A DNA stretch of 64,000 bases from Fimbriimonadales bacterium. GTDB taxonomy: Bacteria; Armatimonadota; Fimbriimonadia; Fimbriimonadales; JABRVX01. Numbering within the stretch: the stretch's first letter is position 1; each line of letters opens with the position of its first letter. This document shows positions 42,932-64,000 of the stretch, in pieces. Under the pieces are notes generated by a model. It made no database searches. It was not told the DNA's origin and worked only from the letters and a program-made list of their open reading frames with translations. The DNA lies in assembly GCA_045862955.1 (NCBI GenBank), contig BTVI01000004.1, positions 43,770-107,769 of the forward strand. The letters are read 5' to 3'. The translations under genes were made by a program, and so were the position numbers.

Positions 42932-43284
42932 GTTGGGGATAGTTTTTACTCCTGACGTGCCGCCTAGGCGGCATCGAAATAGAGACTGGGCTGTGCCCGC
43001 CAAAGCCACCGAAACCCGATCGAGCGGGTGGGCAAGAACGAATCTGGAGAGCGACAGCCGAAGGAGATTTGCTTCCTTGGCTACTATAGCACAATATTCG
43101 GCCGTTGTCTACACCCCACTGCAGGTTCGCGCGGCCCTGGCTACTCCCTAAGAAATTTGGTGTCGTCCAGGATCGGCGGGCTCTCTACGAGTAGCACTGA
43201 CAGCCCAGTACCTTGGCGAGGCTCGCAGGGATTTACGTTGCCCAGACGCCGCGACATTCGTTGCGCGATTCTTTAGCGAGTATC

Positions 43285-43313
43285 TCGACAACGCGGATTA
43301 CCTGTGATACAAT
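43285..43313 (+). promoter_or_regulatory. Sigma70-type promoter for the RHS locus
   Basis: TCGACA-17 nt-TACAAT with extended TG. Confidence 0.6.
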
Positions 43314-43374
43314 GCTCGAGAGGGCCCCCGGTAAAGGTGCTGGAGCCCGTGCCGGGAGCACCAGGAGGTACGGC

Positions 43375-46300
43375 ATGCGATCCACATTGAGCTCCGTCGT
43401 CCACACCGCTCAAGCCCTGCGCTGGGTGGGATCCCTGTTCACCCTCGGGCTCTGTATCCTTGCCGCTCGAGCCGGCGAGTGGAAGATTTCAAGAACGGTC
43501 GAGATCACCGTCGCTGGCGGAGTTACGGAGACAATCACCAACTGCCCCGAACCCAACGAGCCCAGCTATGAGATAGGGGGATCAGAAACCGGCACATTTC
43601 CGCAACCTGACCCAGAAGGGCTCAAGTACTTCGACCAGAGAGACTGGATGGCCGGCTGGCTAGCTGGCGTCTCAGACCCGGCGCTCGAGGGCACAGCGCG
43701 CATAACCTATACGGTGACCTACGAACCGGACTCCGAGGAGGACGAGCCGCCCTCCCGCATAGTCCTGATCCTTGGCGGCTGGCTCTCCTTGGATGGCATC
43801 GGACCGGTAGTCGTCGGCGACTGCTGCCCAGGGGAAGGCCCAGAGGTAGGCGGCGTACATGCAGAGGCGCTGGCCCGGGTCTTGGGTGAAGCTCGTGATG
43901 GACAGGGCTCCGTATCCGCCGGCTGTGACACGTCGGAGGAGTTCAGCCACGCACGGCTGCGTGTCCTGGTGCGGGTGGTCTCCATGGTAAAGGACCAGCA
44001 GTCGGGCAACTGGAGCGGTAGCACCGAAGTCGAGGCGGAGATCGGGATAAAAGAGGAGCTTGTCGGCGAAGGAGCCGTGCGAGCATCCGGCTTCTGGTGG
44101 TCAACCGCCGAAGTGCACATCTATCCCGCCGAGCCGGGCTTCCTGTTTCCAGCGTTCTCACTCCCTTCGGGCCCCGGCGGCGGTTGCGAGTGCGGTATCC
44201 TCACCATCGAACCGCTCAGCGGGACGGTTACCGCCGGCGGCGAGTTCGTCGTCTTCTCGGGGACGATCCCCCTTCGTTCGCAGCGCCAGGACGACGACCG
44301 GGAAGCCGGTGACCCTGGCACAATGTACTCTCTGTTCCCTCCGCCATTCGGGAACATGTCGCACTGGCTATCCATGCGGGTGGAGCCAGGCCGGGCCCTG
44401 CTCGACTACTGGACACCGAACACCTTCACCAACGATGTAGACCCCGCGGGCCGACTGGGCTTCGCCATCGTGCCCGCACGCACCTCAGAGGCAGGCGTGG
44501 GGTCTCCAAGTGCCTCCGCAAGGGCCGGCGTCCTTGCAAGCACAACGCAGGGCCTAACAAGCCTGACCGACCCCGACATTGGCGACTTCGCAGTTGATGC
44601 CACGGGAGCACGCATCCGATTCGGTTCCTACAACGGCGCAGAGCGGGTGGAGTCGAACCTCAGCTTCGTGACGGGAGGCTCGACCATCACGAATGCCGGC
44701 CCGCCCGGCAGAATCGCTTCTAGAGGCGGGTGGACCTACACGTTCGGCCTATACACGGATCTCACGGACAACGTCCCGATTCACCTCCTGACGGGCATTA
44801 CCGACCCGTTCGGCAACGTGGTCTCGATCAACCACGAACAGCGGACCGCCACCTTCAGTTGGAGCGGGGAGACTTGGACCTGGGACCTGTACACGAACGA
44901 GCCAGGCGGGCCGTCAGGGTACCTACGGATGCTCGAAAGGCCAGGTGAGCGGTTTACGTTCACGTGGACCGCAGACGGTCGGATGGCCGGCTACGGACGC
45001 TACGTTTTCGACCCAGGGCTTCAGGATTGGCAGCTGGTCGAGCACTATAGCTTCGGCTGGAACTCCGCGCCGGGTGGGCTGTTACGCGCCGAGCATCAGG
45101 TTACGGGCGACTGCCAGGCTGGTTGCAACACGACGCAGATCGTGGGCCAGGAGTGGCACTCTGCCACACCTTTCGCCAGCCAGAACGAGCCCCACCTGGT
45201 TGCCTTCACCGACCGTTTCGGTCACCCCAAGATGCAGGCAACGGCGGTGGGATTCGAAGGTGCAACGGTCGCAACGAATCTGACAAGGTACCAGTCCGGG
45301 CGCGACTACATGGTGACAGCGACCGACCAGACCGGAAAGACATCCACCACCCGTCTCAGAACAGAAACCGATGTCACGGGCATCCCCCGGGTCAGCGAGA
45401 TACACTCAGAAGGAGCAGTGCTCGTCGGCGCCGGTACACCTTCTCGTACCGTCGTCACTCTGGACCAGTACGATCGCGCGATAGCGGTGGAATGGGATAC
45501 GGAAGCTGGCCCGCTCGCCAACGGCTACGAACTCACCTACGACGGCTACTCGCAGCGCATCGCGTCGGTTCGCAACCGCGACACACACGACACCTGGACC
45601 GTCAGTTGGGCCACCGCGGGTGGTGAGCCTGTTGTCGGCGCAGTCACCGACCCGACGAGCATCTCGTGGCAGTTCTCCTACGGCCAACGCGGGAATCCCG
45701 CCGCCGCGCTCACGACGATGACCTCCCCTTGGGGCGCACACTGGCTGTTCGACTACAACGGCATCGGACAGCTGAAGCAGACGGCAGCGCCCGGTCGAGC
45801 GAGCGACGTTATACAGTACTATGGAGAGGAGCAACAGGACCCACAGGAGTACCTCTCGCTTCCCAAGAGGTACACCGACCCGACGGGCCGCAGCGTGTAT
45901 TTCGAGGCGTACGACCTAAGAAAGAACCTCACCAAATACTCCTTCGAGGACGACGCCCTCAACAAGATCGGCACGCTCTTCGAATACGACGCATTCGGCA
46001 ACCTGAGCACGATCACCCACACTGATCAGTCCCAAGCGTCGTTCACCTACGGCGGTGGGCTGCTCACGAAGGTGACGGACGAGGTAGATCGTAAGGTGTA
46101 CTTCGACCGCTATCCCGGTGGGGATAACCCTGGCAAACTCCGCTCCGTCGCCTTCGACCAGAGCCACGACGACTTGTTCGCCTACCTGGCTTACGATGCC
46201 GCCGGCAGGCTCACACACGTCTGGGATGGGCTCCACGCGACCAATCCCTACGAAGACCCCCCGCCAGCCCAAGAGGTGGCCATACTCTCCTATGACTACG

Positions 46301-48411: not shown

Positions 48412-49148
48412 GACCGGGGCGCAGATGGCTGGTGCTAGTGTTAGTGTCTGCCGTAGTCGTCACATCGCTCGGCCTGTTCTTCTGGCCTAGGTTCATAAGT
48501 CCTTCGAGGTACTACTATTTGGTGGACTCGCGGGTTCTGCCGGCTCGGCTAGCCGAGGCTGAGCGGCTGGCTCGGTCGGCGAATCCCGAGTGGAGGGAGG
48601 TAGCTTGCAGCATAGTGGAGGTCAGCAAAGATAACCGGGCGGTGCCGCTGATGCTGAAGCTGTTGCTTGAGGACCGTGACGAAGGTGTAAGGCGGTCGGC
48701 AGCCGCGGCTCTAAGCGAGGTTGACGATCCTAGGATTGCTGGGGCACTTACGCGGCCGATACGTAGGATGGACCCGTGTGCCCGGCGCGTTGCTGCAATT
48801 GCTCTCTGGCGTAAGTCCGACCCGGACGCTGCGGCGATCTTCTGCTGGATGCTGCGAAGTACGGAGGAGATGGATCGACTGACAGCCATCGACGGCCTAG
48901 GCCGCCTCAAGGGTGAGCAGAACCGGCAAACGGCTGTTCGCGTACTCATGGAGTCGCTAAGCCATGCGCCCCGCCGCGAGCTACTACGCATCTGCGGCAC
49001 GTTAGTCTATCTGGGTGCAGAGGAAGCGGTGTCCGAATTGCGCCAAGTACGTCAACGACGCGACATCGAGCCTACTGATCGTGAATGGATCGACTACTGG
49101 ATCGGTCTCCTTCAGGGTCGGCGAGTGGACCCTCCGGAGCACCCCTAG
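48408..49148 (+). CDS. HEAT-repeat protein with N-terminal anchor, putative immunity protein
   Basis: ATGA overlap with RHS; D..VRR.AA.AL HEAT pattern. Confidence 0.7.
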   Translation: MRPGRRWLVLVLVSAVVVTSLGLFFWPRFISPSRYYYLVDSRVLPARLAEAERLARSANPEWREVACSIVEVSKDNRAVPLMLKLLLEDRDEGVRRSAAAALSEVDDPRIAGALTRPIRRMDPCARRVAAIALWRKSDPDAAAIFCWMLRSTEEMDRLTAIDGLGRLKGEQNRQTAVRVLMESLSHAPRRELLRICGTLVYLGAEEAVSELRQVRQRRDIEPTDREWIDYWIGLLQGRRVDPPEHP

Positions 49149-49289: not shown

Positions 49290-49694
49290 CCGTAGGACGC
49301 GAAACACTCATTACTGCGGCTTACTGCCGGAACCAGCCAAGCGATCGCCGCCGCGAGGGCTGCACGGACGGCGCGAGCTACGGTGGCGACAGCAAGTGCA
49401 AGTACGAGCCGTGCCGCACCCATTTTTCGAGCCGGGATAGAGGTGACGAAGCATGCCGCGGAGCAGATGGCACTGCACAAGGTCACCGCCAGGATGATCG
49501 AGGTAGCATTGGCCAAGGGCGAGCGGTTCTGGGATCCGCTCGGCAAGACATACATCTACATTCTGAGGAGAGCTTACCAGACGAAGGGCGGAGCGCAAGA
49601 TCTGCTGATCGCCAAGAGCCCAACGTGCAAGCGTATCGTGACCGTCATCGTAGGAAACAGGGTGGAGAGACCGAGGTTCGTACCCGTCAAGTGA
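49290..49694 (+). pseudogene. Orphan toxin tip lacking RHS core: DUF4258-like putative RNase (copy 1)
   Basis: TKHAAEQM...IEVAL..G...IVTVI; near-identical to the tip at 59500-59899. Confidence 0.7.
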
Positions 49695-49909
49695 TTGTGG
49701 ATCTGGTATCGTTGGTCAAAGAGCTTGCCGCTCACCCGGACTTCGAACCGGGGACGCCGGTGTGCTTCGAGACTCGGTCGCAACGGTTTGACCAACCATC
49801 AGACGTTGCTGATAGCGTGCCGTACGACTGCGCCAACGGCGTAGACCTATGGGTCTACATAGACCACCAAGGGCTTGTGCTTGGGCTCGAGTTCTGGGGC
49901 GACTGGTGA
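49691..49909 (+). CDS. DUF2283-like immunity/antitoxin 1
   Basis: GTGA overlap; PDFEPGTPV, CANG, DHQGLVLGLEF. Confidence 0.75.
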   Translation: MIVDLVSLVKELAAHPDFEPGTPVCFETRSQRFDQPSDVADSVPYDCANGVDLWVYIDHQGLVLGLEFWGDW

Positions 49910-50039
49910 GCGAAGGGGCCTCGGGCGTCAACGACTGCACCCGGCGTGGCGGTTGGTGTCATAGTTCCGCTCGCCCGACTCTGGCTCCGACTACCATCGT
50001 GCGAAGCGTCGTGTGGACAAGTAAGCATGGGGTGGGAAC

Positions 50040-50261
50040 ATGTTCATTGACCTCATCAACGTCCTCAAGCAGATTTCAGCCCGGTCGGACTACGACCCAG
50101 GGACGCCCGTGTATCTAGACACGCGACCACAGGGTCTAGAGCCACGGCCCGAGGTCGCCAAGAGAGACGAGTGGCTTTGCGAGAACGGGATGAAGTTGGT
50201 CGTTGAGTTCGATGGCCAAGGACGTGTGCTCGGCATACAAGTGTGGCCGATCCCCGACTGA
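50040..50261 (+). CDS. DUF2283-like immunity/antitoxin 2 (orphan)
   Basis: DYDPGTPVYL, CENG, DGQGRVLGIQV. Confidence 0.75.
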   Translation: MFIDLINVLKQISARSDYDPGTPVYLDTRPQGLEPRPEVAKRDEWLCENGMKLVVEFDGQGRVLGIQVWPIPD

Positions 50262-50333
50262 AATCCATCGCCTATCGGTTAGCTCCTTTTCTGCCCATGC
50301 CGGGAAGTCTGCGATGAGCCGGCCATCGAGACG

Positions 50334-51407
50334 GTGAACGGGTTGACGAGGTATCTGGTCTGGGAAGGGGATGAGCTGTTGTTGGAGGTAGCTCCGGGGA
50401 CCGGAGCAGTGATGACCAGGCACGTCTGGGGTGCGGGAGGGTACCAGGGGTACTTCCGGAACGAGGGCAGCACCCCTACCCGGTTGGCTCTCCGCGATGG
50501 CTTGGGGCATGTGAGAGGGTTGATGAATACGTCGAAGGTGATCACTGATAGGTACGTGTACGACGCGTACGGCAACGACGTCGCCCCTAACCTGCACAAC
50601 ACCACCGAGGGCAACAGCCTCCGCTTTCGCTGGAACGGCTCCTACGGCTACCGGACGCTGTACCTGCTATCCGGTCAGCAGAGTACTAACACCGCCACGG
50701 TGATGCACGTCGGTGCCCGCCACTACTCCCCATCGCTGAGAAGATGGCTGCAGCGGGATCCTGTTGGTCTGGGTGGTGGCAGTCCCAATCTGTATCAGTA
50801 CTGCTGTAACTCTCCCATCGGAGCGGTCGATCCGATGGGACTCCAGATGCGGCCCCCAGTAGGACACGAAGAGCGGATCATCTCACTGGCTCTGGGTCTG
50901 ATTCGGCAGGTTGCCCCGGAGATCGCAGACGACTTGCGATCGATTCTGGTGCTTGTCGATGATGACCTGGAACTCGGTGCTCGCGGCACCATCAGAGATG
51001 GCTGCATCGTGCTCAAACCTCACTGGACGGATCCTACAGGGCTGAAGACGTATTGGCACGAGATGAGATCGCGCGCAGTAGAGGCTGCATCGACCATCGT
51101 GCATGAGTACTACCACCTGCGAAAGCAGGCGGAGGGATGGGCGAAGCTGATTTCCTCTTTGGCTTATCACGGGGCCCTGTTGTGGGCTACCCTCGGGGTT
51201 ATGTTCAGCCCCCTCAACGATGTCGAGCAAGTTCCGAAAGACCCACTAGCAGCGTATGAGAAACCGGCGTACTCCTTCTCCGTGCGCTTCCTTGATATCC
51301 TCGCGATAGCGAGGCCAGACCTCATTGCGTACATTCGAGCGACACGTGCGGAAATCTGTGCGGCTTTTGAGCAGCACTATGGTTTGCCACTAACAGGGGG
51401 AGGTTGA
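50334..51407 (+). CDS. Orphan RHS cassette with HExxH metallopeptidase-like tip
   Basis: Core nearly identical to 47410-47860; PIGAVDPMGL; TIVHEYYH and a later E. Confidence 0.8.
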   Translation: MNGLTRYLVWEGDELLLEVAPGTGAVMTRHVWGAGGYQGYFRNEGSTPTRLALRDGLGHVRGLMNTSKVITDRYVYDAYGNDVAPNLHNTTEGNSLRFRWNGSYGYRTLYLLSGQQSTNTATVMHVGARHYSPSLRRWLQRDPVGLGGGSPNLYQYCCNSPIGAVDPMGLQMRPPVGHEERIISLALGLIRQVAPEIADDLRSILVLVDDDLELGARGTIRDGCIVLKPHWTDPTGLKTYWHEMRSRAVEAASTIVHEYYHLRKQAEGWAKLISSLAYHGALLWATLGVMFSPLNDVEQVPKDPLAAYEKPAYSFSVRFLDILAIARPDLIAYIRATRAEICAAFEQHYGLPLTGGG

Positions 51408-51859
51408 TGCCGACACTGCAAGTAGTCTCTCGCTGCTCACTTGCACTGCTTGTTGCGGTATCAGCCGCAGGGTTTGTTGTACTTTCGGGTTGCAGGCCCT
51501 ATGTGGAGAAGGTGCCGCTCTCCGTCTGCATGTTCAACCTGAGGCAGATGCGGGGTGGATTGCTCGAGGTCGCCAAGGCCTTGGGGCCCGAGGGACTGCG
51601 TCGGCTGGACTTCTCACCTGAGGGTAGCGGCTGGCGGAGGTTCGGGGTCATACCTAGCAGCGACCGACCTTGCGAGTGTCCGTCGGCCAAGCCGGACGAA
51701 GGATACGGCTATGTTCTGAACCCGCGGCTGTTCTATCACCCTATTTCCGAGATCGCCGACCAGGATTGGCTGATTGCGGATTCTGCGCCCCGCCATGATG
51801 GTTACTACTGGGCGATTACGAGGTCCGGGAAGGTCTTCAAGACGAGGTTACTCCTGTGA
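51404..51859 (+). CDS. Lipoprotein, putative immunity protein, DUF1559-like motif pattern
   Basis: Lipobox LSGC; CMFNLRQ, CPS, Y..N, RHDG. Confidence 0.65.
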   Translation: MMPTLQVVSRCSLALLVAVSAAGFVVLSGCRPYVEKVPLSVCMFNLRQMRGGLLEVAKALGPEGLRRLDFSPEGSGWRRFGVIPSSDRPCECPSAKPDEGYGYVLNPRLFYHPISEIADQDWLIADSAPRHDGYYWAITRSGKVFKTRLLL

Positions 51860-52029
51860 CGAGGGGTTCGGCTTGTTGTGCCTGTTGGTCCACAGAGTCT
51901 TCCGGAGCGCGCCTTCGTCGTGGACACGGCTGCCTGGGCACAGCTAAGACCTCAAGGCTATGGTGCGGCAAGAATTCCTTACCTCACAGTTCTCTAGCAC
52001 CTGTCAGGACAAGTTGCAACTATGAGGCT

Positions 52030-52968
52030 CCGAACGTGCACGACACCGCCGAGGGCGACCCATTGACTCTAGCATCTCGTGTACCAGGCGTTCAGCACTA
52101 CGCGCCGCTCAGGGCTGGCGCCCACCCTACGCTATGCCTTCTAGCCGGCCGACAGTGCAATAGCTCCACCACCATGCCCGGGTTCTCGGAATCAGGCGGC
52201 CGCCGCACCCTCTACTTGCTAACCGGCCAGCAGAGTACTAACACCGCCACGGTTCCCGAGTTCCCCGGGACAGGCATGCACGTCGGTGCCCGCTACTACT
52301 CCCCCTCCCTCCGCCGCTGGCTCCAGCGTGACCCAATTGACCTCCTAGCAGGAGACCCGAACCTGTACGTTTACTGCGCGAACTACCCGGTAGGTCTCGT
52401 TGACCGAACTGGCCTCGACGGATTCGAGTTCACGCTAGAGGTCGTCGCGGAAGGTCTCAAGACCGGTCTGTGCGCAGTCGGTGAGGCCTTTACATTCGGC
52501 CTGTGGAAGAACGAGCAGTACGCCAACAAGCCGGGGTATGGTACATCCGTCTTGCTGGCGACTGGCGGCCGAGAGGCGCTGCTTACTGCAGGGGCAATCG
52601 GAGCGAGCAAGGCGGTCTCTGCGGCGCGCGCTGCGAGATCGGCACGAGCGGCAACAGCAACCGCCGCCGCGGCAAGCACGAGTCGTGCCGCACCTATTGT
52701 GCGGGGTGGGATAGAGGTCACGAAGCATGCCGCGGAGCGGATGGCATCGAGAGGTGTGACATCAAAGATGGTTGAGACTGCATTGGCCAGGGGTGAACGG
52801 TTCTGGGATCCAGTAGGCAAGACTTACATCTACGTCCTTCGAAAGGTCTACCAGACCAAGGGAGGGGCGCAAGATCTGCTGGTTGCACGAAGCTCGACCT
52901 GTAATAAGATTGTGACGGTGATGGTGGGCAACAGGGTCATCAATCCCAGGTATGTGAGTATCCGATGA
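52030..52968 (+). pseudogene. Degenerate orphan RHS cassette with intact DUF4258-like tip (copy 2)
   Basis: Scrambled core remnants; PVGLVDRTGL; TKHAAERMASRGVT...IVTVM. Confidence 0.7.
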
Positions 52969-53186
52969 CCCTCCAATTTGTTAAGGTGATCGAGGACATC
53001 GTAGCTCGCCCCGACTATGAGCGTGGTACTCCGGTGTACCTCGACGTACGACGGCCCGGACCCAGGAGTCTGCCGGACGTGGCACAGACAGTGGTCTACG
53101 AGTGCGAGAACGGCATGGAGCTTTGGATTGACCTGGACGCTGATGGGAGAGCACTGGGCATCGAGGTACTTCCCATCATTGGGTGA
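52965..53186 (+). CDS. DUF2283-like immunity/antitoxin 3
   Basis: ATGA overlap; PDYERGTPVYL, CENG, DLDADGRALGIEV. Confidence 0.8.
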   Translation: MTLQFVKVIEDIVARPDYERGTPVYLDVRRPGPRSLPDVAQTVVYECENGMELWIDLDADGRALGIEVLPIIG

Positions 53187-53262
53187 TTACTAGTGGTGGT
53201 GTGGGGCCAGAGGATGCTGGTCCGAGTGGCTTCTGCCCGGCTGATTCAACCAGCTTCAGGCG

Positions 53263-54516
53263 GTGACGGGCGCGCTGAGTTATGGGTTGGCGTACGGAGC
53301 GGATGGAGCCGTGGCTGGGCTGGATGATGGAGTGTACGAGTGGACGTACGCCTATGACGACGAGAACCGGCTGAAGGAGGTGCGGCGCAACGGGCAGGTG
53401 GTGTATAGTTGTGTGTACGATGCCTTCGGGCGGCCGGCTGTTGAAACCCTGAACGGTGTGACGAGGTATCTGGTGTGGGAGGGAGATGAGCTGCTGCTGG
53501 AGGTCGGGACCAACGGAGCGGTAGCCGTGCGGCACGTGTGGGGAGCCGGTGGGTACCAGGGGTACTTCCGGAACGAGGGCAGCACCCCTACCCGGCTGGC
53601 TCTGCGGGATGGGTTGGGGCATGTGAGAGGGTTGATGAACATGTCCAAGGTGGTGACGGATCGGTACGTGTTCGACGCGTATGGCAACGACGTGGCGCCG
53701 GGGCTGCACAACACCGCGGAGGGCAACAGCCTGCGCTTCCGCTGGAACGGCTCCTGCGCCTACCGCACGCTCCCCGGCACGAACGTGATCCACGTAGGAG
53801 CAAGGCACTATTCCGCGCAGCTACGCAGATGGTTGCAGACGGAGCCCGCGGGAATCACCGCGGGCAATCCTAATATGCACCGATACTGCTACGGCAACCC
53901 GGTGTCTGCCGTTGACCCGAACGGTCGGTACACTATTTTCGTACACGGCAGTTGGAGCAACACCGAGCGGTGGGCAACCGAATTCGTGGCACAGGCCAAG
54001 CGACAGTGCCTCGAGAAGACGGGGCACTTCATGTTCGGATGGTCCGGCTGGCCGATCATCGGCGAATTGCGGCAGGCCGCCTCGGAGCTCCCAGACTTCA
54101 TCGAGTCGGTCTGGAGGCGGCACGGAAAGAGCGAACCGATTTACCTGTTCGCGCACAGCCACGGAGGGAACATCGCTCTGTTGGCCTCGCAGATATTGAA
54201 GGAGCGGGGGCACGAGGCCGGCATCATACTGCTGGTAGCCTTCGGCACTCCTTGGGGACCTATGCATCCCGGCATCGGCAAGGAGGGTACTTTGATCGAG
54301 CCAAGCGATCTGGTGTACCGGGTGTATAACGTATTCTCACGAGGTGACGCTGTTCAGTGGGCGGCGGGTGAGCGCATACCGAGTTTCGCCTCGAAGCTGG
54401 AGAAGTGCGGCCGATGGGTGAACGTCGAGTTGCCAGGGGGTTGGTTTTCAGGACTGCGGCACACCGACCTCGGTTCGCCCGCAGACTTGACGTTCCTCCC
54501 GAACCCACTACGGTAG
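53263..54516 (+). CDS. Orphan RHS cassette with alpha/beta-hydrolase (lipase-like) tip
   Basis: Core homologous to 47210-47720; PVSAVDPNGR; IFVHG, AHSHGG nucleophile elbow, FGTP, D.V, H. Confidence 0.82.
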   Translation: MTGALSYGLAYGADGAVAGLDDGVYEWTYAYDDENRLKEVRRNGQVVYSCVYDAFGRPAVETLNGVTRYLVWEGDELLLEVGTNGAVAVRHVWGAGGYQGYFRNEGSTPTRLALRDGLGHVRGLMNMSKVVTDRYVFDAYGNDVAPGLHNTAEGNSLRFRWNGSCAYRTLPGTNVIHVGARHYSAQLRRWLQTEPAGITAGNPNMHRYCYGNPVSAVDPNGRYTIFVHGSWSNTERWATEFVAQAKRQCLEKTGHFMFGWSGWPIIGELRQAASELPDFIESVWRRHGKSEPIYLFAHSHGGNIALLASQILKERGHEAGIILLVAFGTPWGPMHPGIGKEGTLIEPSDLVYRVYNVFSRGDAVQWAAGERIPSFASKLEKCGRWVNVELPGGWFSGLRHTDLGSPADLTFLPNPLR

Positions 54517-54522
54517 TTAGAG

Positions 54523-54894
54523 GTGTCTTCGATGGACTGGGAAGAGCACAGGGTATTGGCGGAACGCTTGTGGTCGAACGTGCTTGCTACACTAGGGCTG
54601 ACTGCCGGATGCTCTGCTGTGGCTGGCGTGATGGGTGTGCTACTCGTCATGTTGGTAATGCGTAGGGGGTCCACCGGACTCGAGGGTTTCGTGCACATTA
54701 CAGTCATAGCCCCACTTTCTTCTGCGGTGATTGGCGCCGTGCTATGGGCGGCCACGTGGCTCGTGGTCAAGAGCATGTTGTCTGCTGCGTTACGCCCGCA
54801 GGTCATGCAAGAGATTGCATGGGGTGTCGTAGCCCTAGTTATGGCTTTGCAGGCTTTCGTGTGGGCACTATTCATCAGGCATGGTGTGCAGTAG
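54523..54894 (+). CDS. Three-TM membrane protein, putative immunity for the hydrolase tip
   Basis: Directly downstream of the tip; paralogue of 57705-58070. Confidence 0.7.
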   Translation: MSSMDWEEHRVLAERLWSNVLATLGLTAGCSAVAGVMGVLLVMLVMRRGSTGLEGFVHITVIAPLSSAVIGAVLWAATWLVVKSMLSAALRPQVMQEIAWGVVALVMALQAFVWALFIRHGVQ

Positions 54895-54963
54895 CAGTCG
54901 CTCTGATTAACTGGCGGCGCAGGCCTCTCGGCTTTACTGCCGCGCTCGACACTACATGACTGC

Positions 54964-56121
54964 TTGGGGCATGTGAGAGGGTTGATGAATACGTCCAAGG
55001 TGGTGACGGACAGGTACGTCCACGATGTGTACCCGTTCGCGGGCGGGGGTGCGTCTGACCCTCGTAGCGCGCTGCCCCCGCGCTGTCATGTGGTTGAACA
55101 CGCGCGCCGCCGGCCGGGCAGCGCAAGTGGCAACGACGTGGCGTCGCGGTTGCACTGCTCCTACAAGCAGGGCGACAGGGACAGCACCGAGGACGACCCG
55201 TTCGCTCTAGTGCCTCCTGTGCCCGGTGTTCAGCACAACGCGGGGCTAAGGGCAGGTGGCACCGACGCGGCGCCGAATCTGCACAACACGGCCGAGGGCA
55301 ACAGCCTCCGCTTCCGCTGGAACGGGTCGTATCCCGACTCATCGGGGACAAGCGGCTACCGGACGCTCTACCTGCTCTCCGGCCAACAAACCACTAATAC
55401 CGCCACGGTGATGCACGTCGGTGCCCGCCACTACTCCCCATCGCTTAGAAGATGGCTGCAACGGGACCCGATCGACCTACTCGGCGGCCACCCGAACATG
55501 TACCAGCACTGCTTTGGAGACTCGGTTCAATTCGTGGATCCTCTCGGGTACCAGACAGACAAGCGCGAGTCGCCCGGCCAGCAAGCTGCCAAGAACGCCG
55601 ACAAGAACATTGACAGAGGCCCCAAGGACTGCGCTAAGTGGTGTCGGAAGACCTACGAGGACATTCTTCCGATGCCGCCTGGAGCCGCGAATAGCTGGGC
55701 CAGGTGGTTCGCAGATCACTCAGAGCACTGCCAGAAGGTGGCCAATGACAAGAGCTATGTTCCCTGCCCCGGTGACGTGCTCGTGGTAACACGCCCAAAG
55801 GCAGCACACGGCCGCATACCAATGATAGGAACGCCACTTGAGATCCGGCTGCTGGTGCCAACGGATGTCGGGCCGAAGCCCCTGCACCCTGTTCACATCG
55901 TGACAGTGTTCGGCGTGCCCATGATGGTTGTCAAGCAATCAATGGTTGATGCCAGCTTGCCCGACCGCCCTGGTACGAGGAGGCTTCTCAGCCCAGAAAG
56001 CCACCTTCACGACCACTCCCCAGGTGCTACAGTGACGATATGGCGGCCCCGTCGCTGCGGCGATACAAGCTGCGATTATTGCAAGGAGAATGCTGCTCGA
56101 CCGGAGCAGAAGGGCAGGTGA
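54964..56121 (+). CDS. Orphan RHS cassette (with in-frame inserts) and CHAP/NlpC-P60-like tip
   Basis: VQFVDPLGY; DCAKWC, GAANSW, PCPGDVLV, HIVTV. Confidence 0.7.
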   Translation: MGHVRGLMNTSKVVTDRYVHDVYPFAGGGASDPRSALPPRCHVVEHARRRPGSASGNDVASRLHCSYKQGDRDSTEDDPFALVPPVPGVQHNAGLRAGGTDAAPNLHNTAEGNSLRFRWNGSYPDSSGTSGYRTLYLLSGQQTTNTATVMHVGARHYSPSLRRWLQRDPIDLLGGHPNMYQHCFGDSVQFVDPLGYQTDKRESPGQQAAKNADKNIDRGPKDCAKWCRKTYEDILPMPPGAANSWARWFADHSEHCQKVANDKSYVPCPGDVLVVTRPKAAHGRIPMIGTPLEIRLLVPTDVGPKPLHPVHIVTVFGVPMMVVKQSMVDASLPDRPGTRRLLSPESHLHDHSPGATVTIWRPRRCGDTSCDYCKENAARPEQKGR

Positions 56122-57056
56122 CGAGTTTGGTTCAGCTGCTGATGTTCGCATTACTGCTCACGGCGCGGACAGACACCGACGAGCCGTGGTTTGCCTACAA
56201 GACCCTCACGGGTGGAGTCGCGGTGCAGGCAGGCCAGACGGTGAAATACACCCTTCCGATGGCGGACATCGTAGGGTGGGTGTCGTGCTCCCAATCGCTA
56301 CTTGTAGTTGACTACACATCATCTGGAGCACGTGTGCTTGTTGACCCTTACTCTGGCGCGACAACGGGGGTCACGCAGACTGTCTCATGGCCGAAGAGCA
56401 CGGCTCCGACCGACACCGCAGATCGCCCGGATCCCACGGGAAGCAGGTTCGTCACCTACCATCGGGATGGGAGCATCTGGCTGGCTGACTACACGATGGG
56501 TACAGCCACTCAGTTGTTCTCTGCGGATCGACTTAAGAATCAGTTCGGTATTCCGGTGCCAGGAGGCGAGGGACAGCTGCCGGTTCGCAGTGTCTGGAAT
56601 CCAAGTGGCACGAAGGTAGCGATATCGCTACCCAGCGGCGAGATAGCGACGAGCCAGGCCATGGAGGAGCACTACGACGTCTGGCTGATTGACGTTGCTT
56701 CGCGCAATGCCGCGAAGCTGGGACGCGGGTATCCATACGTGTGGCTGTCAGACGATAAGGTACTATGCCTCTACTGGCACATCGTTGGAAACGAAGCTCG
56801 TAAGGAAGCAAGGGTTTACTCCACCTCGGGCAAGCTGCTAGCATCGAGGCATGACTTCCACGACCTGGGCTGGGACGGGAAGAGAATCCTGGGAGTCGTT
56901 TCTCGTCGCAACCCCAAGACGGACCGAATCGATTGCTTCGTGCAGGCCTGGTCTCCCGATCTGAAGAGGAAGCTCGGGGAGTACCCGTGCCCCGACTACC
57001 GGTATACGAACAGGGAGGGCACTCTCGAAGGCATCCCCCGACCGGAGAGGAAGTGA
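56118..57056 (+). CDS. Secreted TolB/beta-propeller-like protein, putative immunity
   Basis: GTGA overlap, signal peptide, PDPTGSRFV, WNPSGTKVA, WSPD. Confidence 0.65.
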   Translation: MTSLVQLLMFALLLTARTDTDEPWFAYKTLTGGVAVQAGQTVKYTLPMADIVGWVSCSQSLLVVDYTSSGARVLVDPYSGATTGVTQTVSWPKSTAPTDTADRPDPTGSRFVTYHRDGSIWLADYTMGTATQLFSADRLKNQFGIPVPGGEGQLPVRSVWNPSGTKVAISLPSGEIATSQAMEEHYDVWLIDVASRNAAKLGRGYPYVWLSDDKVLCLYWHIVGNEARKEARVYSTSGKLLASRHDFHDLGWDGKRILGVVSRRNPKTDRIDCFVQAWSPDLKRKLGEYPCPDYRYTNREGTLEGIPRPERK

Positions 57057-57084
57057 CGCTGTCTGATCAGTCGGTCCCCGGGGT

Positions 57085-57693
57085 CCGGACGCTTTATGCT
57101 AATGGCATTGTGTCTTCATGCTTCGGCAGCAGAGCCGAGCGGTGCTCCCGAAGCGCACGGTCAGCAGCGCCTACTTTCGATGGAGCGCCGGCCTCGCCGC
57201 CAGGGTCCTCTCGACTCCCTACCATGGCTGCTTCGGCATGACCACTTCGTTCTGATACCGAAGCATCCAGGTAGCGTTGGCTATGAAGATCGCTGAGGTG
57301 TGGAAGAAGTACGGCCAGACGGAGCCGATCTACATCTTCGCCCACAGCCACGGGGGGAACATCGCGCTGATTGCCTCGCAATACCTATCGCGTTGGGGGT
57401 ACAAGACCGGTAACATCGCCGTGATCGCGTTCGGTACGCCGTGGGAACCGTGGGGAGTTCTGACATTCCCGGAAGCTAGGCCGAGCGACTTAGTCGAGCG
57501 GGTGTACAACGTCTTCTCGCGCTCCGATGCCGTTCAGTGGTTGTTCGGGAATCGCGTGCCGGGCTGGGCAAGAAACTCGTCCGATTGCGGCTGGTCGGAT
57601 ATTGTTTATGAGGGCAAGGGTGCCCCTGGACACCGCAACCTCGGCCATCCCCGGGACATTGAGAACCTACCACCGTTCAAGTGGCGTGAGTGA
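57085..57693 (+). pseudogene. Frameshifted second alpha/beta-hydrolase toxin tip
   Basis: 57277-57693 aligns with the tip in 53263-54516 (EPIYIFAHSHGGNIAL, PSDLV.RVYNVFSR.DAVQW); degenerate 5' part. Confidence 0.7.
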
Positions 57694-57704
57694 GGTAGAG
57701 CATC

Positions 57705-58070
57705 ATGGAGATCCATTACCGCTTTGATGTGCCGGACTTCTGGTCGCGGCTTGGCCGATCTGCGTCTTACCTCGTGCTGGCGTGCCTGATTTCAGGCTAC
57801 GTTGGATTGGTGATTGGGATGCTCCTCACGCGGAGGTTCTTCTCGGAGTTGAGTGGCTTCGCCCACATCATATTGATCGTACCGATGTCGTCGATGATAG
57901 TGGGGGTTGTCGTATGGAGCGTGATCCTCAGCGTCGTTTACTTCCATGCCTCCGCCGACGGGGTGCTGGATTCCTCGGTGGTGCTGACTGCCACAATCGT
58001 GGCGAGCGGGGTGGTCCTCGTGCTCCAAGCTGTCGTGTGGGTCCTGCTCGTCCGGCTTGGTGGCCAATAG
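57705..58070 (+). CDS. Three-TM membrane protein, putative immunity
   Basis: L.GF.HI..I.P.SS..G...W shared with 54523-54894. Confidence 0.72.
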   Translation: MEIHYRFDVPDFWSRLGRSASYLVLACLISGYVGLVIGMLLTRRFFSELSGFAHIILIVPMSSMIVGVVVWSVILSVVYFHASADGVLDSSVVLTATIVASGVVLVLQAVVWVLLVRLGGQ

Positions 58071-58169
58071 GTGTAGCTCCATCGCAGGCACCGGCCTGGT
58101 CAGCTCCCAATGCTGCGCCGGCTGCCATGCCCACGATGTGCGTGACACACTGGCGACCACGGGCAGGAC

Positions 58170-59899
58170 GACGCTGTATCTGGTGTGGGAGGGCGATGAG
58201 CTGCTGCTGGAGGTCGGGACCAACGGAGCGGTCGCGGTGCGGCACGTGTGGGGAGCCGGTGGGTACCAGGGGTACTTCCGGAACGAGGGCAGCACCCCTA
58301 CCCGGCTGGCTCTCCGGGATGGACTGGGGCATGGCAGGGGTGTGCATTCCCTTCCTCTCCCTTCCCAAGGGAGAGGATTGAGGTGAGGGTTTCCGTGGTG
58401 CCCCTGCCCAGAGGCCCCGTTGCTGGTAGGGGCCTGCTGGTAGCAGTCGAACTCTCATCCCAGCCTTCTCCCTTGGGAAGGGAGAAAGAGGTTGGTAGTT
58501 CTTGCCCCAACCGGCTGGCGTTGCGGGGTGGGTTAGCTGCCTCTTCCCCCCCTCCCTTGTTCAAGCGGGAGGGCCTGCGAAGCTGGGATGGGGGCTGCCG
58601 AGCGCACAGTCGGCTCCGACCTAGCTGGGAGAGAGGCGACCCCCTTCCCAACCTTCCCCCTGGCCAGGGGGAAGGGGTAACATGCTGTCGGCCCTGCGGG
58701 ATGGGTTGGGGCATGTGAGAGGGTTGATGAACACGTCGAAGGTGATCACGGATAGGTACGTCCCCGATGCGTATCCGTTCGCGGGCGGCGGCGGGTCTGA
58801 CCCTCGTAGCGCGCTGCCCCCGCGCTGTCATGTGGTTGAACACGCGCGCCGCCGCCCGCGCAGCGCAAGTGGCAAGGGCGTGGCGTCGCGGTTGCACTAC
58901 TCCTACAAGCAGGGCGACAGGGGCAGCACCGAGGACGACCCGTTCGCTCTAGCGGCTCCTGTGCCCGGTGTTCAGCACAGGTCGGCACTCAGGGCAGGTG
59001 GCAGCGACGCGGCGCCGGAGTTGCACAACACGGCCGAGGGCAACAGCCTGCGCTTCCGCTGGAACGGCTCCTACGGCTACCGCACGCTCTACCTGCTAAC
59101 CGGCCAGCAGACGACGAACACTGCGACCGTTTCGGAGTTCTCGAGGACAGGCGGCTACCGTGCGATCTACCTGCTCTCCGGCCAACAAACCACTAACACC
59201 GCCACGGTGATGCACGCCGGGGCCCGCCACTACTCCCCCTCCCTCCGTAGATGGCTCCAACGGGATCCGACTGACATCGCGGCCGGAGAGCCCAACCTAT
59301 ACGTCTACTGCGGCAATTGCCCACTTGGCCTTGCAGATCCCCAAGGGCTAGACGGCTTCGAGTTCACGTGAGAGGGCGTCAAGGAGGGTGTGAAGACCGG
59401 CCTGTGTGCTGTCGGGGAAGCCTTCACATTCGGCTTGTGGAGGAACGAGGACTATGCAAACAAGCCCGGGTATGGCACGTCCGTGGCACTTGCCACTGTA
59501 GGGCGGGAAGCACTTGTTACCGCCGGAGCCGCTGGGGCGAGCAAGGTCATTACCGCGGCGCGCGCTGCGAGATCGGCACGGGCCGCAGCAGCAACCGCCT
59601 CCGCAAGCACGAGTCGCGCCGCGCCAATCGTGCGGGGCGGGATCGAGTTCTCCAAACACGCCGCAGAGCGGATGGCAGAGCACAACGTTACTACCAAGAT
59701 GCTTGAGGTAGCATTGGCGAAGGGAGAGCGATTCTGGGATCCACTCCACAAGACCTACATCTACATCCTTAGGAGGGCTTACCAGACGAAGGGCGGACCT
59801 CAAGATCTGCTGATTGCCAGGAGTCCAACGTGCAATCGTATCGTGACCGTCATCGTAGGAAACAGGGTGGACAGACCGAGGTTCGTACCCCTCAAGTGA
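58170..59899 (+). pseudogene. Orphan RHS cassette with DUF4258-like tip (copy 3), interrupted by palindromic elements and a nonsense codon
   Basis: TGA at 59369-59371 where the paralogue has TGG (62229-62231); PLGLADPQGL. Confidence 0.8.
58334..58690. repeat. One type-1 and one type-2 REPIN-like element within the RHS core
   Basis: cctctcccttcccaagggagagg...ccttctcccttgggaagggagaa; ccttccccctggccagggggaagg. Confidence 0.85.
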
Positions 59900-60114
59900 T
59901 CGTGGACCTGATATCGTTGGTCAAAGAGCTTGCCGCTCACCCGGACTATGAACCGGGGACGCCGGTGTGCTTCAAGACGCGGTCGCAAGGGTGGGACCAA
60001 CCATCGGACGTTGCTGACACCGTGCCGTACGACTGCGCCAACGGCGTAGACCTTTGGGTCGACATCAGCCACCAAGGGCTTGTGCTTGGCCTCGAGTTCT
60101 GGGGCAAGTGGTGA
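59896..60114 (+). CDS. DUF2283-like immunity/antitoxin 4
   Basis: Near-identical to 49691-49909. Confidence 0.78.
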   Translation: MIVDLISLVKELAAHPDYEPGTPVCFKTRSQGWDQPSDVADTVPYDCANGVDLWVDISHQGLVLGLEFWGKW

Positions 60115-60232
60115 GCGAGGAATCCTCGGGCGACAGCACCCGGCCCGGCGGTCGGTACCATAGTTTCGCTCGCCCGGCTCTGGATAGCATCGTACGAATC
60201 GTAGTGTGGGCAATTAGGCAAGAGGTGGGACA

Positions 60233-60514
60233 GTGTTCGTTGACCTCATAGACATCCTGAAGGACATATTAGCCCGGTCAGACTGCGCTCCAGGGACTCG
60301 CGTGTACCTAGATATGCGTCCACAGGATCCAGATCCAACGCCCGAAGTCGCCAAGAAAGACGAGTGGCTTTGCGAGAACGGGATGAAGCTGGTGGTTGAC
60401 TACGATGAGCAGGGACGCATCCTGGGGATGGAGGTGTGGCCTATCGTCGAGTCCGAGCAAGCGGACACGAGTTGTGAGCCCCGTCCTCCAGCCCCGCCTA
60501 AGGGCCAAGGCTGA
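60233..60514 (+). CDS. DUF2283-like immunity/antitoxin 5 (orphan)
   Basis: Paralogue of 50040-50261 with C-terminal extension. Confidence 0.75.
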   Translation: MFVDLIDILKDILARSDCAPGTRVYLDMRPQDPDPTPEVAKKDEWLCENGMKLVVDYDEQGRILGMEVWPIVESEQADTSCEPRPPAPPKGQG

Positions 60515-60554
60515 CCCCCCGTGCTCATTCTCCAGGCGGGCACCGGTTGCGGCA

Positions 60555-62746
60555 ACGACGAGGTGTCTGGTGTGGGGATGGGATGAGCTGCTGCTATAGG
60601 TCGGGACCAACGGAGTGGTTTCGGTGCGGCATGTGTGGGGAGCCGGTGGGTGCCATGGGTGCCGGGAGACGAGGTTCTCTCGCATGGTGTCGGAGCATGG
60701 CAGAGGTGTGCCTTCCCTTCCTCTCCCTTCCCAAGGGAGAGGATTGAGGTGAGGGTTTCCGTGGTGCCCCCGCCGAGGGCCCTCGTTCTTGGGAGGCGGC
60801 AGGTGGTAGCAGTCGAACCCTCATCCCAGCCTTCTCCCTTGGGAAGGGAGAAGGAGGTTGGTAATTCCTGCCTCATCCGGCTGGCGTTGCGTGAGGGGTT
60901 AGGGCATGGCAGGGGTGAGCATTCCCTTCCTCTCCCTTCGCAAGGGAGAGGATTGAGGTGAGGGTTTCCGTGGTGCCTCCGCCGAGAGGGCCCGTTGCTG
61001 GTAGGTGGCAGTGTTTGCAGTCGAACCCTCATCCCAGCCTTCTCCCTTGGGAAGGGAGAAGGAGGTGGTTAGTTCCTGCCTCATCCGGCTGGCGCTGCGG
61101 GATGGGTTAGGACATGGCAGAGGTGTGCATTCCCTTCCTCTCCCTTCGCAAGGGAGAGGATTGAGGTGAGGGTTTCCTGGGTGCCTCCGCCCAGAGGCCC
61201 CGTTGCTGGTAGGTGGCAGGTGGTAGCAGTCGAACCCTCATCCCAGCCTTCTCCCTTGGGAAGGGAGAAGGAGGTAGGTAGTTCCTGCCTCATCCGGCTG
61301 GCCGTGCGTGACAGGCTGGCTTCCTCTTCCCCCCTCCCCTTTTTCAAGGGGGAGGGCCTGCGAAGCTGGGGTGGGGGCTGGCGAGCGCACAGTCCCCGAA
61401 CACTTCGCTCGGGGAGAGGCGACCCCCTTCCCAACCTTCCCCCTGACCAGGGGGAAGGGGTAATATGCTGTCGGCTCTGCGCGATGGCTTGAGGCATGGC
61501 AGGGGTGAGCATTCCCTTCCTCTCCCTTCTCAAGGGAGAGGATTGAGGTGAGGGTTTCCGGGGTGCCCCCGCCGAAAAGCCAAGTTCCTGGGAGGTGGCA
61601 GGGGGTAGCAGTCGAACCCTCATCCCAGCCTTCTCCCTTGGGAAGGGAGAAGGAGGGCGGTAGTTCCTGCCTCATCCGGCTGGCGTTGCGTGGTGGGTTG
61701 GCTTCTTCTACCCCCTCCCCTTTCTCAAGGGGGACGGCCTGCGAAGCTGGGCTGGGGGTTGCAGAGCGCACAGTCCCCGAACACTTCGTTGGGAGAGAGA
61801 CGACCCCCTTCCCAACCTTCCCCCTGGCCAGGGGGAAGGGGTAAGATGCTGTCGACCCTGCGGGATGGGTTGGGGCATGTGAGAGGGTTGATGAACAGGT
61901 CGAAGGTGATCACCGACAGGTATGTGTTCGACGCGGATGGGAGCGACATGGCGCCGGGCCTGCACAACACGACTGAGGGCAACTCCCTGCGCCTCCGCTG
62001 GAACGGCTCCTACGGCTACCGGACGCTCTACTTCCTAACAGGCCAACAAACCACTAACACCGCCACACTGATGCACGTCGGTGCCCGCCACTACTCCCCC
62101 TCCCTCCGTAGATGGCTCCAACGGGATCCGATTGACATCGCGGCCGGAGACCCCAACCTATACGTCTACTGCGGCAATTGCCCAGTTGGCCTTGCAGATC
62201 CCCAAGGGCTAGACGGCTTCGAGTTCACGTGGGAGGGCGTCAAGGAGGGTGTGAAGACCGGCCTGTGTGCTGTCGGGGAAGCCTTCACATTCGGCTTGTG
62301 GAGGAACGAGGACTATGCAAACAAGCCCGGGTATGGCACGTCCGTGGCACTTGCCACTGTAGGCAGGGAAGCACTTGTTACCGCGGGAGCCGCTGGGGCG
62401 AGCAAGGTCATTACCGCGGCGCGCGCTGCGAGATCGGCACGGGCCGCAGCAGCAACCGCCTCCGCAAGCACGAGTCGCACCGCACCAATCGTGCGGGGCG
62501 GGATCGAGTTCTCCAAACACGCCGCAGAGCGGATGGCCGAGCATGGCGTGACATCGAGAATGGTAGAGACAGCGATTCTGGGATCCGAAGAACAAGACAG
62601 TCACGTACATCCTGCGAGAAGCATTCCCACGAAGTGGAGGCAGGTCGAAGGACCTACTGGTCGCGACGTCGCCGGGCTGCAAGCGCGTAGTTACGGTCAT
62701 CGTCGGAAGGGACCTGGTGAGTAAGAGGTTCGTCCCAATCAAATGA
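60555..62746 (+). pseudogene. Orphan RHS cassette with DUF4258-like tip (copy 4), six palindromic inserts and a frameshifting deletion
   Basis: PVGLADPQGL; loss of about 17 nt near 62572, after which the shifted frame reads FWDPKNKTVTYIL...VVTVIVG...FVPIK*. Confidence 0.8.
60696..61852. repeat. Tandem array of REPIN-like elements (types 1,1,1,2,1,2) separated by RHS-derived linkers
   Basis: 208-209-bp period for type 1; linkers ccggctggcgttgcgtgaggggttagggcatg. Confidence 0.9.
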
Positions 62747-62967
62747 AGAAGATCAGTCTACTGTCGCTGGTCAAGGAGATCTCGGCTCGTCCCGATTACG
62801 AGCGCGGAACCCCTGTGTACTTCGTCACGCGGCACGAGAGCCGTCGAGGCCTGCCTACTGCGGACGAGGACGTGCCGCAGGAGTGCGCGAATGGGATGGA
62901 GATTGTGTTCGCGCTCGACCGCCACCGGCGCGTGCTCGGGATGGAAGTCTATCCTATCATTTGGTGA
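62743..62967 (+). CDS. DUF2283-like immunity/antitoxin 6
   Basis: ATGA overlap; PDYERGTPVYF, CANG, RVLGMEV. Confidence 0.78.
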   Translation: MKKISLLSLVKEISARPDYERGTPVYFVTRHESRRGLPTADEDVPQECANGMEIVFALDRHRRVLGMEVYPIIW

Positions 62968-63130
62968 GGGCGACGCGTGGGAAGGGAAGCACTTGCACCA
63001 GACTCGGTTTCTGCTCGCGGATTGCTGTGAGTTTGGTGCGCAAATGTGGGACTGTTTGCAGGTCCGATTGCATGGTGATTCCGGCTGCCTGGAAATAACT
63101 GCCAGTAGACCGTTCTGAGGTGAATCTTGT

Positions 63131-63412
63131 ATGTACGTCAACTTGCTGACTGTCATCCAAGAGGTCTGGGCGCGAGGAGGCTGCCGGCGAGGCACTCCCG
63201 TGTACCTCGACACACGCCCAGAAGGAGCAGAACCGCCGCCCCAAGCTTTCAGGAAAGTGGAGTACGAGTGCGAGAACGGGATGAAGCTGGTGGTTGACTA
63301 CGATGAGCAGGGACGCATCCTGGGGATGGAGGTGTGGCCTATCGTCGAGTCCGAGCAACCGGACACGAGTTGTGAGCCCCGTCCTCCAGCCCCGCCTAAG
63401 GGCGAAGGCTGA
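63131..63412 (+). CDS. DUF2283-like immunity/antitoxin 7 (chimeric orphan)
   Basis: GAGG RBS; 3' half near-identical to 60233-60514. Confidence 0.75.
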   Translation: MYVNLLTVIQEVWARGGCRRGTPVYLDTRPEGAEPPPQAFRKVEYECENGMKLVVDYDEQGRILGMEVWPIVESEQPDTSCEPRPPAPPKGEG

Positions 63413-63454
63413 CCCCCAGTGCTCATCCTCCAGGCGGGCACCGGTTGCGGCAAC

Positions 63455-64000
63455 GACGAGGTATCTGGTGTGGGAGGGCGATGAGCTGCTGCTGGAGGTC
63501 GGGACCAACGGAGCGGTAGCCGTGCGGCATGTTCGGGGAGCCGGTGGGTACCAGGGGTACTTCCGGAACGAGGGCAGCACCCCTACCCGGCTGGCTCTCC
63601 GGGATGGACTGGGACATGGCAAAGGTGTACCTTCCCTTCCTCTCCCTTCTCAAGGGAGAGGATTGAGGTGAGGGTTTCCACGGTGCCCCCGCCGAAAAGC
63701 CAAGTTCCTGGGAGGTGGCAGGGGGTAGCAGTCGAACCCTGATCCCAGCCTTCTCCCTTGGGAAGGGAGAAGGAGGTTGGTAACTCCTGCCTCATCCGGC
63801 TACCCTTGCGTGAGGGGTTGGGGCATGGCAGAGGTGTGCATTCCCTTCCTCTCCCTTCTCAAGGGAGAGGATTGAGGTGAGGGTTTCCGTGGTGTCCCCG
63901 GCGAGAGGCCCCGTTGCTGGTAGGTGGCAGGTGGTAGCAGTCGAACCCTCATCCCAGCCTTCTCCCTTGGGAAGGGAGAAGGAGGTTGTTAGTTCCTGCC
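63455..64000 (+). pseudogene. Start of a further RHS cassette interrupted by two type-1 elements (runs off the window)
   Basis: TRYLVWEGDELLLEV...RLALRDGLGH then elements at about 63615 and 63824. Confidence 0.75.

Follow-up and report, generated by a model that had tools for sequence, protein, structure and literature searches.

Why would one bacterial genome line up four related toxin tips and seven related small genes behind a full-length Rhs gene? The array lies in a stretch of 64,000 nucleotides (nt; here called the window, whose coordinates are used throughout) at the end of contig BTVI01000004.1 (positions 43,770 to 107,769, forward strand) in assembly GCA_045862955.1 of a Fimbriimonadales bacterium (Armatimonadota), a genome of 3.36 Mb that is 97.6% complete. 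We read the array as a set of Rhs orphan cassettes with four DUF4258 tips, for which a colicin-E5-like RNase function is predicted; behind each of them lies a probable immunity gene related to DUF2283/YuzE. We give this reading a probability of roughly two in three. The first-pass annotation of the locus had proposed that an intracellular toxin–antitoxin (TA) pair was recruited as an Rhs tip and amplified into a poly-immunity set; most of its anatomy stands, at least in part; the origin that it assigned to the pair is not supported, and the term poly-immunity does not fit.

The four tips start with KHAAE[RQ]M at 49449, 52723, 59654 and 62515, as had been described, and each is overlapped by 4 nt (GTGA, ATGA, GTGA and ATGA in copies 1 to 4) by a gene of 72–74 amino acids (aa). 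Three further paralogues had been claimed, and a profile search at E≤1e-34 indeed found exactly seven copies of the small gene, none of them elsewhere in the genome than in the array. The elements of the array are as follows.

49296..49694, + strand: cassette 1, 5′-truncated linker and intact DUF4258 domain T1 (49437–49694), no Rhs core
49691..49909, + strand: I1a, 72 aa, DUF2283-related, overlaps T1
50040..50261, + strand: I1b, 73 aa, second paralogue without a tip of its own
51856..52968, + strand: cassette 2, core fragment (DRTG), linker and DUF4258 tip T2 (52711–52968)
52965..53186, + strand: I2, 73 aa, DUF2283-related, overlaps T2
58682..59899, + strand: cassette 3, DPQG core fragment, in-frame TGA at 59369, linker and intact T3 (59642–59899)
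59896..60114, + strand: I3a, 72 aa, 88% identity to I1a
60233..60514, + strand: I3b, 93 aa, second paralogue, DUF2283 score 19.4 bits
61690..62746, + strand: cassette 4, DPQG core fragment, linker and T4, whose domain is broken near 62570 (17-nt deletion)
62743..62967, + strand: I4a, 74 aa, overlaps the end of T4
63131..63412, + strand: I4b, 93 aa, second paralogue, DUF2283 score 19.7 bits

Several details of the earlier description needed correction. The tips were said to follow a DPxG site and a hydrophobic linker; a true DPxG is present only in copies 3 and 4 (DPQG), while copy 2 carries DRTG and copy 1 has neither core nor DPxG, and the linker is Ala/Gly-rich and no more than mildly hydrophobic (best 19-residue Kyte–Doolittle value 1.15–1.17). 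Copies 1 and 3, called near-identical, are similar (84% for the tips, 88% for the first genes), five of the small proteins have 72–74 aa and two of the orphans have 93 aa instead of about 73, and among the motifs proposed for them C[EA]NG is present in all seven, D[YF]ExGTPV in four and DxxGR[VI]LG[ILM]E exactly in two.

The assignment of the tips to DUF4258 (PF14076) was borne out, since two of the three intact tips, T2 (30.6) and T3 (31.7), pass the Pfam gathering score of 25; T1 (21.3) falls below it, and T4 is broken inside the domain. Identity is 84% between T1 and T3, 71% for T1/T2 and T2/T3, and 57–65% for T4, read through its break with an X. A structural model of T2 (two helices and four strands; predicted local distance difference test score, pLDDT, 86.5) found its best fold match in 3ao9, which we take to be colicin E5, with Z 7.7 (a middling value on the tool's own scale), a root mean square deviation of 2.4, 73 aligned residues and 11% identity; chains of RelE, YoeB, colicin D, BrnT, ParE and CdiA-CT make up most of the next ranks. 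Foldseek also placed colicin E5 (2a8k) in its first row (E 0.13, TMq 0.52), with no match at E≤0.001. One histidine of the tips is invariant in all 18 rows of their alignment. The tips are predicted from the model to have a BECR RNase fold, nearest to colicin E5, in agreement with the RNase fold expected earlier. By sequence, no solved relative was found for the tip profile; word-indexed searches for relatives returned only proteins of this genome, a first scan of genome contigs and a scan of phages gave none, and a metagenome scan gave one match of 25 residues. Matches to plasmid traD were set aside as chance.

DUF4258 overlaps Ntox49 and is colicin-like, in a group that mostly targets tRNA, according to a preprint (bioRxiv 10.64898/2026.08.28.747851; this and the papers cited below are drawn on in excerpt), and the Ntox49 identity of our tips rests on the overlap given there. 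Ntox49 is listed by Zhang 2012 (PMC3482391) on the routes T2SS, T5SS, T7SS (type II, V and VII secretion systems), MuF and PVC and together with RHS repeats, with Imm22 as its partner, and CdiA type 8 of E. coli is annotated as DUF4258, “tRNase (?)” (PMC11630599), so that DUF4258 is already known as an exported tip. Gerdes 2025 (PMC11980606) calls the family experimentally undescribed.

For the small genes, named DUF2283 in the first-pass annotation, the relationship holds through homologues and not by direct membership: three of the seven proteins score 14.8–19.7 bits on Pfam DUF2283 (PF10049; cut-off 23), over the last hairpin only, and none passes. A full-library profile search gave nine matches, i.e., two in the window, three homologues outside it (P0006, P0010 and P0011) and four spurious ones (P0007, P0008, P0009 and P0012), set aside as repeats or MliC. 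The source of P0010 names it YuzE, and its DUF2283 score of 22.9 lies just under the cut-off. Searches of the phylum (401 genomes; up to 14 candidates scored per search) added homologues in genomes G396, G276 and G400, of which the first two pass the cut-off and the third does not. The homologues P0017 and G276 reach 28.1 and 29.3 bits, respectively, over profile positions 10–45 of 49. As homologues were added to the small-gene profile, its hhalign probability against 27 canonical DUF2283 proteins of the phylum rose from 90% (19 columns, window-only profile) to 93% and then 96% (36–37 columns), the last with E 4.6e-9 over 36 columns. On the canonical DUF2283 profile every one of the 2100 shuffles scores below I2, I3b and I4b, and all but one score below I1b. 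In the Atlas, DUF2283 clusters take first place by features (0.85) as well as by structure (TM 0.58–0.59), each value below its naming bar.

Where the two groups differ is at their ends. As read from the alignment, canonical DUF2283 opens with a YDxxxD strand and its chain continues past the GxE strand, whereas in the small proteins an N-terminal helix replaces the YDxxxD strand and the chain ends after the GxE strand, without the C-terminal helix; the core LY-strand and the D.D..G.V.G.E hairpin are kept. The model of I2 has one helix and then four strands (pLDDT 83.6). We read the small proteins not as Pfam members but as a subfamily that is related to DUF2283 and has had its ends rebuilt. 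The best fold match of the small-protein model has only Z 4.2, and Foldseek gave none at E≤0.001, which is evidence neither of a novel fold nor of one unlike DUF2283; ImmE5 is not among the matches listed. No solved sequence relative was found for canonical DUF2283 or for the small-gene profile, and the seven genes had no immunity-family match in Pfam or NCBIfam at E≤0.5, Imm22 itself not having been aligned.

These scores could also be read as a family of immunity proteins of independent origin, alike to DUF2283 only in an acidic beta-hairpin and left in an array that is mostly decaying debris. The failure of all seven to pass the Pfam cut-off, the 19 columns of the window-only profile and the absence, from the two closest genomes, of anything that matches the small-gene profile agree with this, as do three broken cassettes out of four and the palindromic repeats that interrupt the cores. 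We nevertheless hold it to be very unlikely, because the transitive homologues do pass the cut-off over most of the profile, canonical pairs have a partner toxin of the same family, none of the seven frames is interrupted, dN/dS (the ratio of nonsynonymous to synonymous change) is below 1, and the layout recurs in another genome. This genome, G400, belongs to a second Armatimonadota family and harbors, amid other Rhs cassettes, a YD-repeat fragment, a hydrophobic linker and a DUF4258 tip (23.5 bits), and a gene from the helix-capped subfamily overlaps this tip. The G396 homologue sits in a run of unrelated small genes in which no tip was seen, and the G276 homologue stands alone. Two plasmids that share a replicon type, one of B. 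cereus E33L and one labelled Klebsiella, each encode a signal-peptide-like protein whose tip matches weakly (tblastn E 0.1–0.3; Pfam E 0.2 in one and none in the other), and the gene behind it passes DUF2283.

The same partnership exists outside export systems. DUF2283 is present in 103 of 301 phylum genomes, and when 14 upstream open reading frames (ORFs), chosen by eye, were scanned at the best 30 DUF2283 loci, 12 matched DUF4258 (10 above the cut-off), nine of these 12 pairs sharing the gene order and 4-nt overlap of the array. Stand-alone DUF4258–DUF2283 pairs, cited as established by the first-pass annotation, are thus found in the same phylum. In one of its genomes a single ORF fuses DUF4258 (32.3 bits) to canonical DUF2283 (65.7 bits; L058:2606–3163, G331), which makes it a natural model of the complex.

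The 12 stand-alone toxins directly upstream of DUF2283 lend some weight to the capture originally proposed, in which such an intracellular pair was taken whole onto Rhs and its antitoxin then diversified to match the tips. So do the approximately unbiased (AU) test, which does not reject a tree with all DUF2283-partnered toxins on one side (p 0.34), the reported transfer of HicA from TA systems to polymorphic toxins (PMC9424270), and first genes that changed two to three times faster than the tips (dN 0.45–0.61 against 0.21). Yet the window tips are only 13–25% identical to the stand-alone DUF2283-paired toxins, and their nearest relatives are Rhs orphans in genomes G057 (two copies) and G107, which share 38–41% identity with T2 and are followed by an unrelated, all-helical protein (with a weak colicin-immunity match of 16.2 bits in one of the two scanned). 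In both trees exported and stand-alone toxins are split by a single change (support 73/80 and 65/63), which argues against a recent capture, although the trees are unrooted and short and the split is biased because the exported toxins were gathered through their similarity to the tips. The grouping of the window tips with exported tips has weak support, and the trees give no direction. Together with the missing YDxxxD strand and C-terminal helix in the small proteins, and with Ntox49 already widespread on five export routes (PMC3482391), this speaks against the capture as originally claimed, and we regard it as rather unlikely.

What these comparisons likely indicate is that the DUF4258–DUF2283 partnership is old and common to exported toxins and stand-alone TA-like pairs, whichever came first. 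A bolder version, which we put forward only tentatively, is that DUF4258 and DUF2283/YuzE form an ancient toxin–inhibitor pair that moves jointly between intracellular TA-like operons and exported weapons, i.e., Rhs proteins in Armatimonadota and Sec-secreted proteins on Bacillus-type plasmids, and that the inhibitor's ends were rebuilt when it entered the Rhs arrays.

Other DUF4258 settings were seen along the way. G057 carries (L052, G057:C34) a 6.5-kb multi-cassette Rhs orphan block in tandem duplicate, including a DUF4258 tip and its helical partner. Signal-peptide-like proteins of ∼210–230 aa that end in a DUF4258 tip occur in G028, G378 and G195 (L065, L066 and L067), each followed by a Cys-rich gene with CxCxxC/CPxC motifs, possibly a small secreted toxin–immunity pair. 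Two loci (L079 and L085) were excluded as Rhs cases for their ambiguous N-terminal context, and an Agrobacterium tip was excluded as no partner gene is annotated behind it.

Within the array, tip and first immunity gene had been reported to co-vary, which is correct; the co-variation is explained by their exchange as one recombination block. Cassettes 3 and 4 are 93–98% identical in DNA up to the KH codon, 58–68% over tip and first gene, and 96–98% once more where the second gene ends; cassettes 1 and 3 have only 61–64% identity in the linker and 80–93% over tip and first gene, with the best match exactly there. The 5′ part of I3b is nearer to I1b, while its 3′ part has 96–98% DNA identity to I4b. 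Such a block exchange fits a functional coupling of tip and first gene, but it is one event rather than repeated co-evolution. Apart from I1a and I3a (88%), the remaining 20 pairs of small proteins are 35–68% identical; the three orphan second genes (I1b, I3b and I4b) share 53–68% and look like one lineage carried along with the cassette. Tips and small genes alike show purifying selection, with faster change in the small genes: dN/dS is 0.10–0.21 for the tips (three pairs) and 0.17–0.60 for the small genes (17 of 21 pairs computable), and every computable pair is below 1, values that are rough and speak of past selection only, as dS is near saturation in most pairs. In the definition of Zhang 2012, the tandem immunity genes of a polyimmunity locus are free of intervening toxin cassettes; the array does not fit it, because its immunity genes are separated by such cassettes and at most two stand in a row.

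Damage is distributed unevenly between tips and small genes. Only cassette 2 has an open frame from the core through the end of the tip. In copy 1 the frame opens only past a TAG at 49293, in mid-linker; the TGA at 59369 in copy 3 lies 11 codons past the DPQG aspartate; and the 17-nt deletion in copy 4 shifts the frame within the toxin domain. The break in copy 4 and the junction of copy 1 are spanned, with zero differences or gaps, by contigs from two sequencing runs of two studies (X1, possibly the source sample of the assembly, and X4), and the stop in copy 3 is kept in an X1 contig that differs at two other places only. In X4, about 50916–51923 and 52428–52931 are uncovered and a joint whose short side has only 24 letters connects 50615 with 55309; we did not read this as a cassette deletion. 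As they stand, cassettes 1, 3 and 4 could not be delivered, and only cassette 2 could be deployed.

The intact domains of T1 and T3, although severed from the core, raise the reverse or dual possibility that translation of the orphan tips begins internally and that, with their partners, they form type II TA modules inside the cell; cassette 1 would then be a weapon fragment on its way to a stand-alone pair. In-frame GTG codons are present at 49383, 49443 and 59390, public gene calls (P0003, 83 aa; P0001, 169 aa) start there, and Salmonella Rhs tips act as internal TA modules (PMC7043789). The ribosome-binding contexts, however, are not clean, and T4 is broken inside its domain while I4a is intact, which a role in immunity storage fits better. 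For the array as a whole we find this explanation unlikely; for T1 and T3, internal TA-like expression is a live rival. With the other tips decaying and all seven small genes open, the array of Rhs orphan cassettes likely serves as a store of immunity to the variant tips that kin may carry.

Two further genes and a family of repeats complete the setting.

43375..48411, + strand: full-length Rhs, with YD repeats, core and DPSG at 47908; its tip is not DUF4258
48408..49148, + strand: HEAT-repeat gene (HEAT_2, 57 bits), likely the immunity gene of the main Rhs tip, a role suggested by its position
58302..64000, no strand: seven palindromic repeats of ∼205 nt, which interrupt Rhs core fragments before cassette 3, before cassette 4 and at the contig end

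The main Rhs ORF has 1732 codons (43213–48411; PF05593 66 bits, TIGR03696 59 bits) and likely starts at ATG 43375, which gives a signal-peptide-like N-terminus as judged by eye and hydropathy. Downstream of the HEAT-repeat gene follow ∼15 kb of Rhs core fragments with varied tips; TIGR03696 is above the cut-off in all five core ORFs scanned there (cassette 1 has no core), and core DNA is common to the main Rhs and these fragments (70–89% over 87–529 nt). Neither VgrG (PF05954) nor TssC (PF05943), the only two markers of type VI secretion (T6SS) searched, was found in the genome, which does not favour delivery of this Rhs by a T6SS.

In the mechanism that we propose, recombination in the shared core would place a cassette on the full-length Rhs, which would leave the cell through Sec, as its signal-like N-terminus and the lack of VgrG and TssC suggest. 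Self-cleavage of Rhs proteins at DPxG is established, and here it would free linker and tip; the tip would then cut tRNA in a neighbouring cell by means of its invariant histidine, and the small protein would bind and block it.

Several observations count against this reading. In addition to the middling fold score and the rough selection estimates, no small protein passes the DUF2283 cut-off (best 19.7), the shared part amounts to ∼36 columns of a common beta-hairpin, and the canonical-profile scores of I1a, I3a and I4a fall among those of the shuffles. Beside the WLQRDP block, homology to the main Rhs is only 76–78%, with longest exact runs of 18–39 nt, so that recombination onto the main Rhs may be rare; exchange between cassettes was seen, a tip fused to the main Rhs gene was not. 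Nor was a DUF4258 tip seen on a full-length Rhs in this assembly or in the stretches read of G400, G057 and G107. The array may extend further, because the contig stops at 64000.

Beyond the DUF4258 cassettes, lipase-like alpha/beta-hydrolase tips are encoded at 53263–54894 and 57277–58070 (the latter coreless), each followed by a small hydrophobic gene, and orphan tips without a Pfam match at 50334–51859 and 54964–57056, each with its own downstream gene; one of these two bears a HEYYH metal-binding motif and one contains Cys and His. The palindromic repeats are placed at the RLALRDGLGH codons of the core fragments, and their ∼42-nt core has 69 blastn matches on 16 contigs, like REP-type (repetitive extragenic palindromic) elements. 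The main Rhs tip (47914–48411) has a weak PPPDE peptidase match (E 0.14) with GSH and YNC motifs and is possibly a papain-like peptidase toxin with the HEAT-repeat protein as partner. A second small Rhs-like array with other tips lies in the same genome (G000, C11, ∼15500–20400, minus strand). At least half of the sampled words are present in six bioreactor or sludge metagenome runs from three studies; no RNA dataset is among the listed runs that carry them.

The DUF2283/YuzE family is common and has a predicted antitoxin role, YuzE being called a predicted antitoxin in PMC12521503. In two families of Armatimonadota and on two plasmids, genes related to DUF2283 occupy the immunity position behind exported DUF4258 tips, which is independent evidence from gene context that such proteins bind and block a DUF4258 RNase. 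With three intact tips and seven partners, a small cross-protection matrix would address both functions and whether orphans give cover against variant tips. If the pair is ancient and mobile, nature has provided in this array a graded set of specificities, with three intact tips and seven inhibitors, and it would be the first direct way into the function of the widespread YuzE family.

Rhs orphans, Ntox49 tips and exchange between TA systems and weapons are already known; the new part is likely the use of DUF2283-related proteins as immunity for exported Ntox49-type tips. We found no published case of it, although the tables of Zhang 2012 or the preprint may name the partner otherwise; the DUF2283 literature that we found holds nothing on polymorphic toxins, and the Li 2022 supplement makes no mention of these family names. 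The “DUF2283” label of an integrative and conjugative element (ICE) activator in PMC4755241 was judged unrelated.

With published Ntox49/DUF4258 tips the cassettes share the exported C-terminal domain, the conserved histidine, the colicin-like BECR fold and RHS among the carriers; they differ in a DUF2283-related partner instead of the listed Imm22, and in having four paralogous tips and seven paralogous partners in one array. Similar to the Salmonella Rhs orphans, for which recombination is established (PMC3967940), core fragments lie behind a full-length Rhs, with variable tips, a downstream small gene, fragmented frames and DNA homology that would allow recombination. In contrast to Salmonella, the Rhs is of a signal-peptide type in a genome where VgrG and TssC were not found, and a single tip family recurs in four copies, with exchanges that fall within the tip and within an immunity gene.

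The stand-alone DUF4258–DUF2283 pairs have the toxin family, gene order, 4-nt overlap and a related partner sheet in common with the array, where the toxin is instead fused behind an Rhs core, at 13–25% toxin identity, and the partner has an N-terminal helix for the YDxxxD strand and no C-terminal helix. The colicin E5 C-terminal tRNase is the top structural match of the T2 model in both fold searches, at 11% identity, and its inhibitor ImmE5 is not listed for the small-protein model. Finally, as for HicA/BECR-Tox2 (PMC9424270; bioRxiv 10.64898/2026.08.28.747851), a toxin domain is common to TA or defence modules and polymorphic toxins; in contrast to that case, the partner protein here also appears to be common to both settings.

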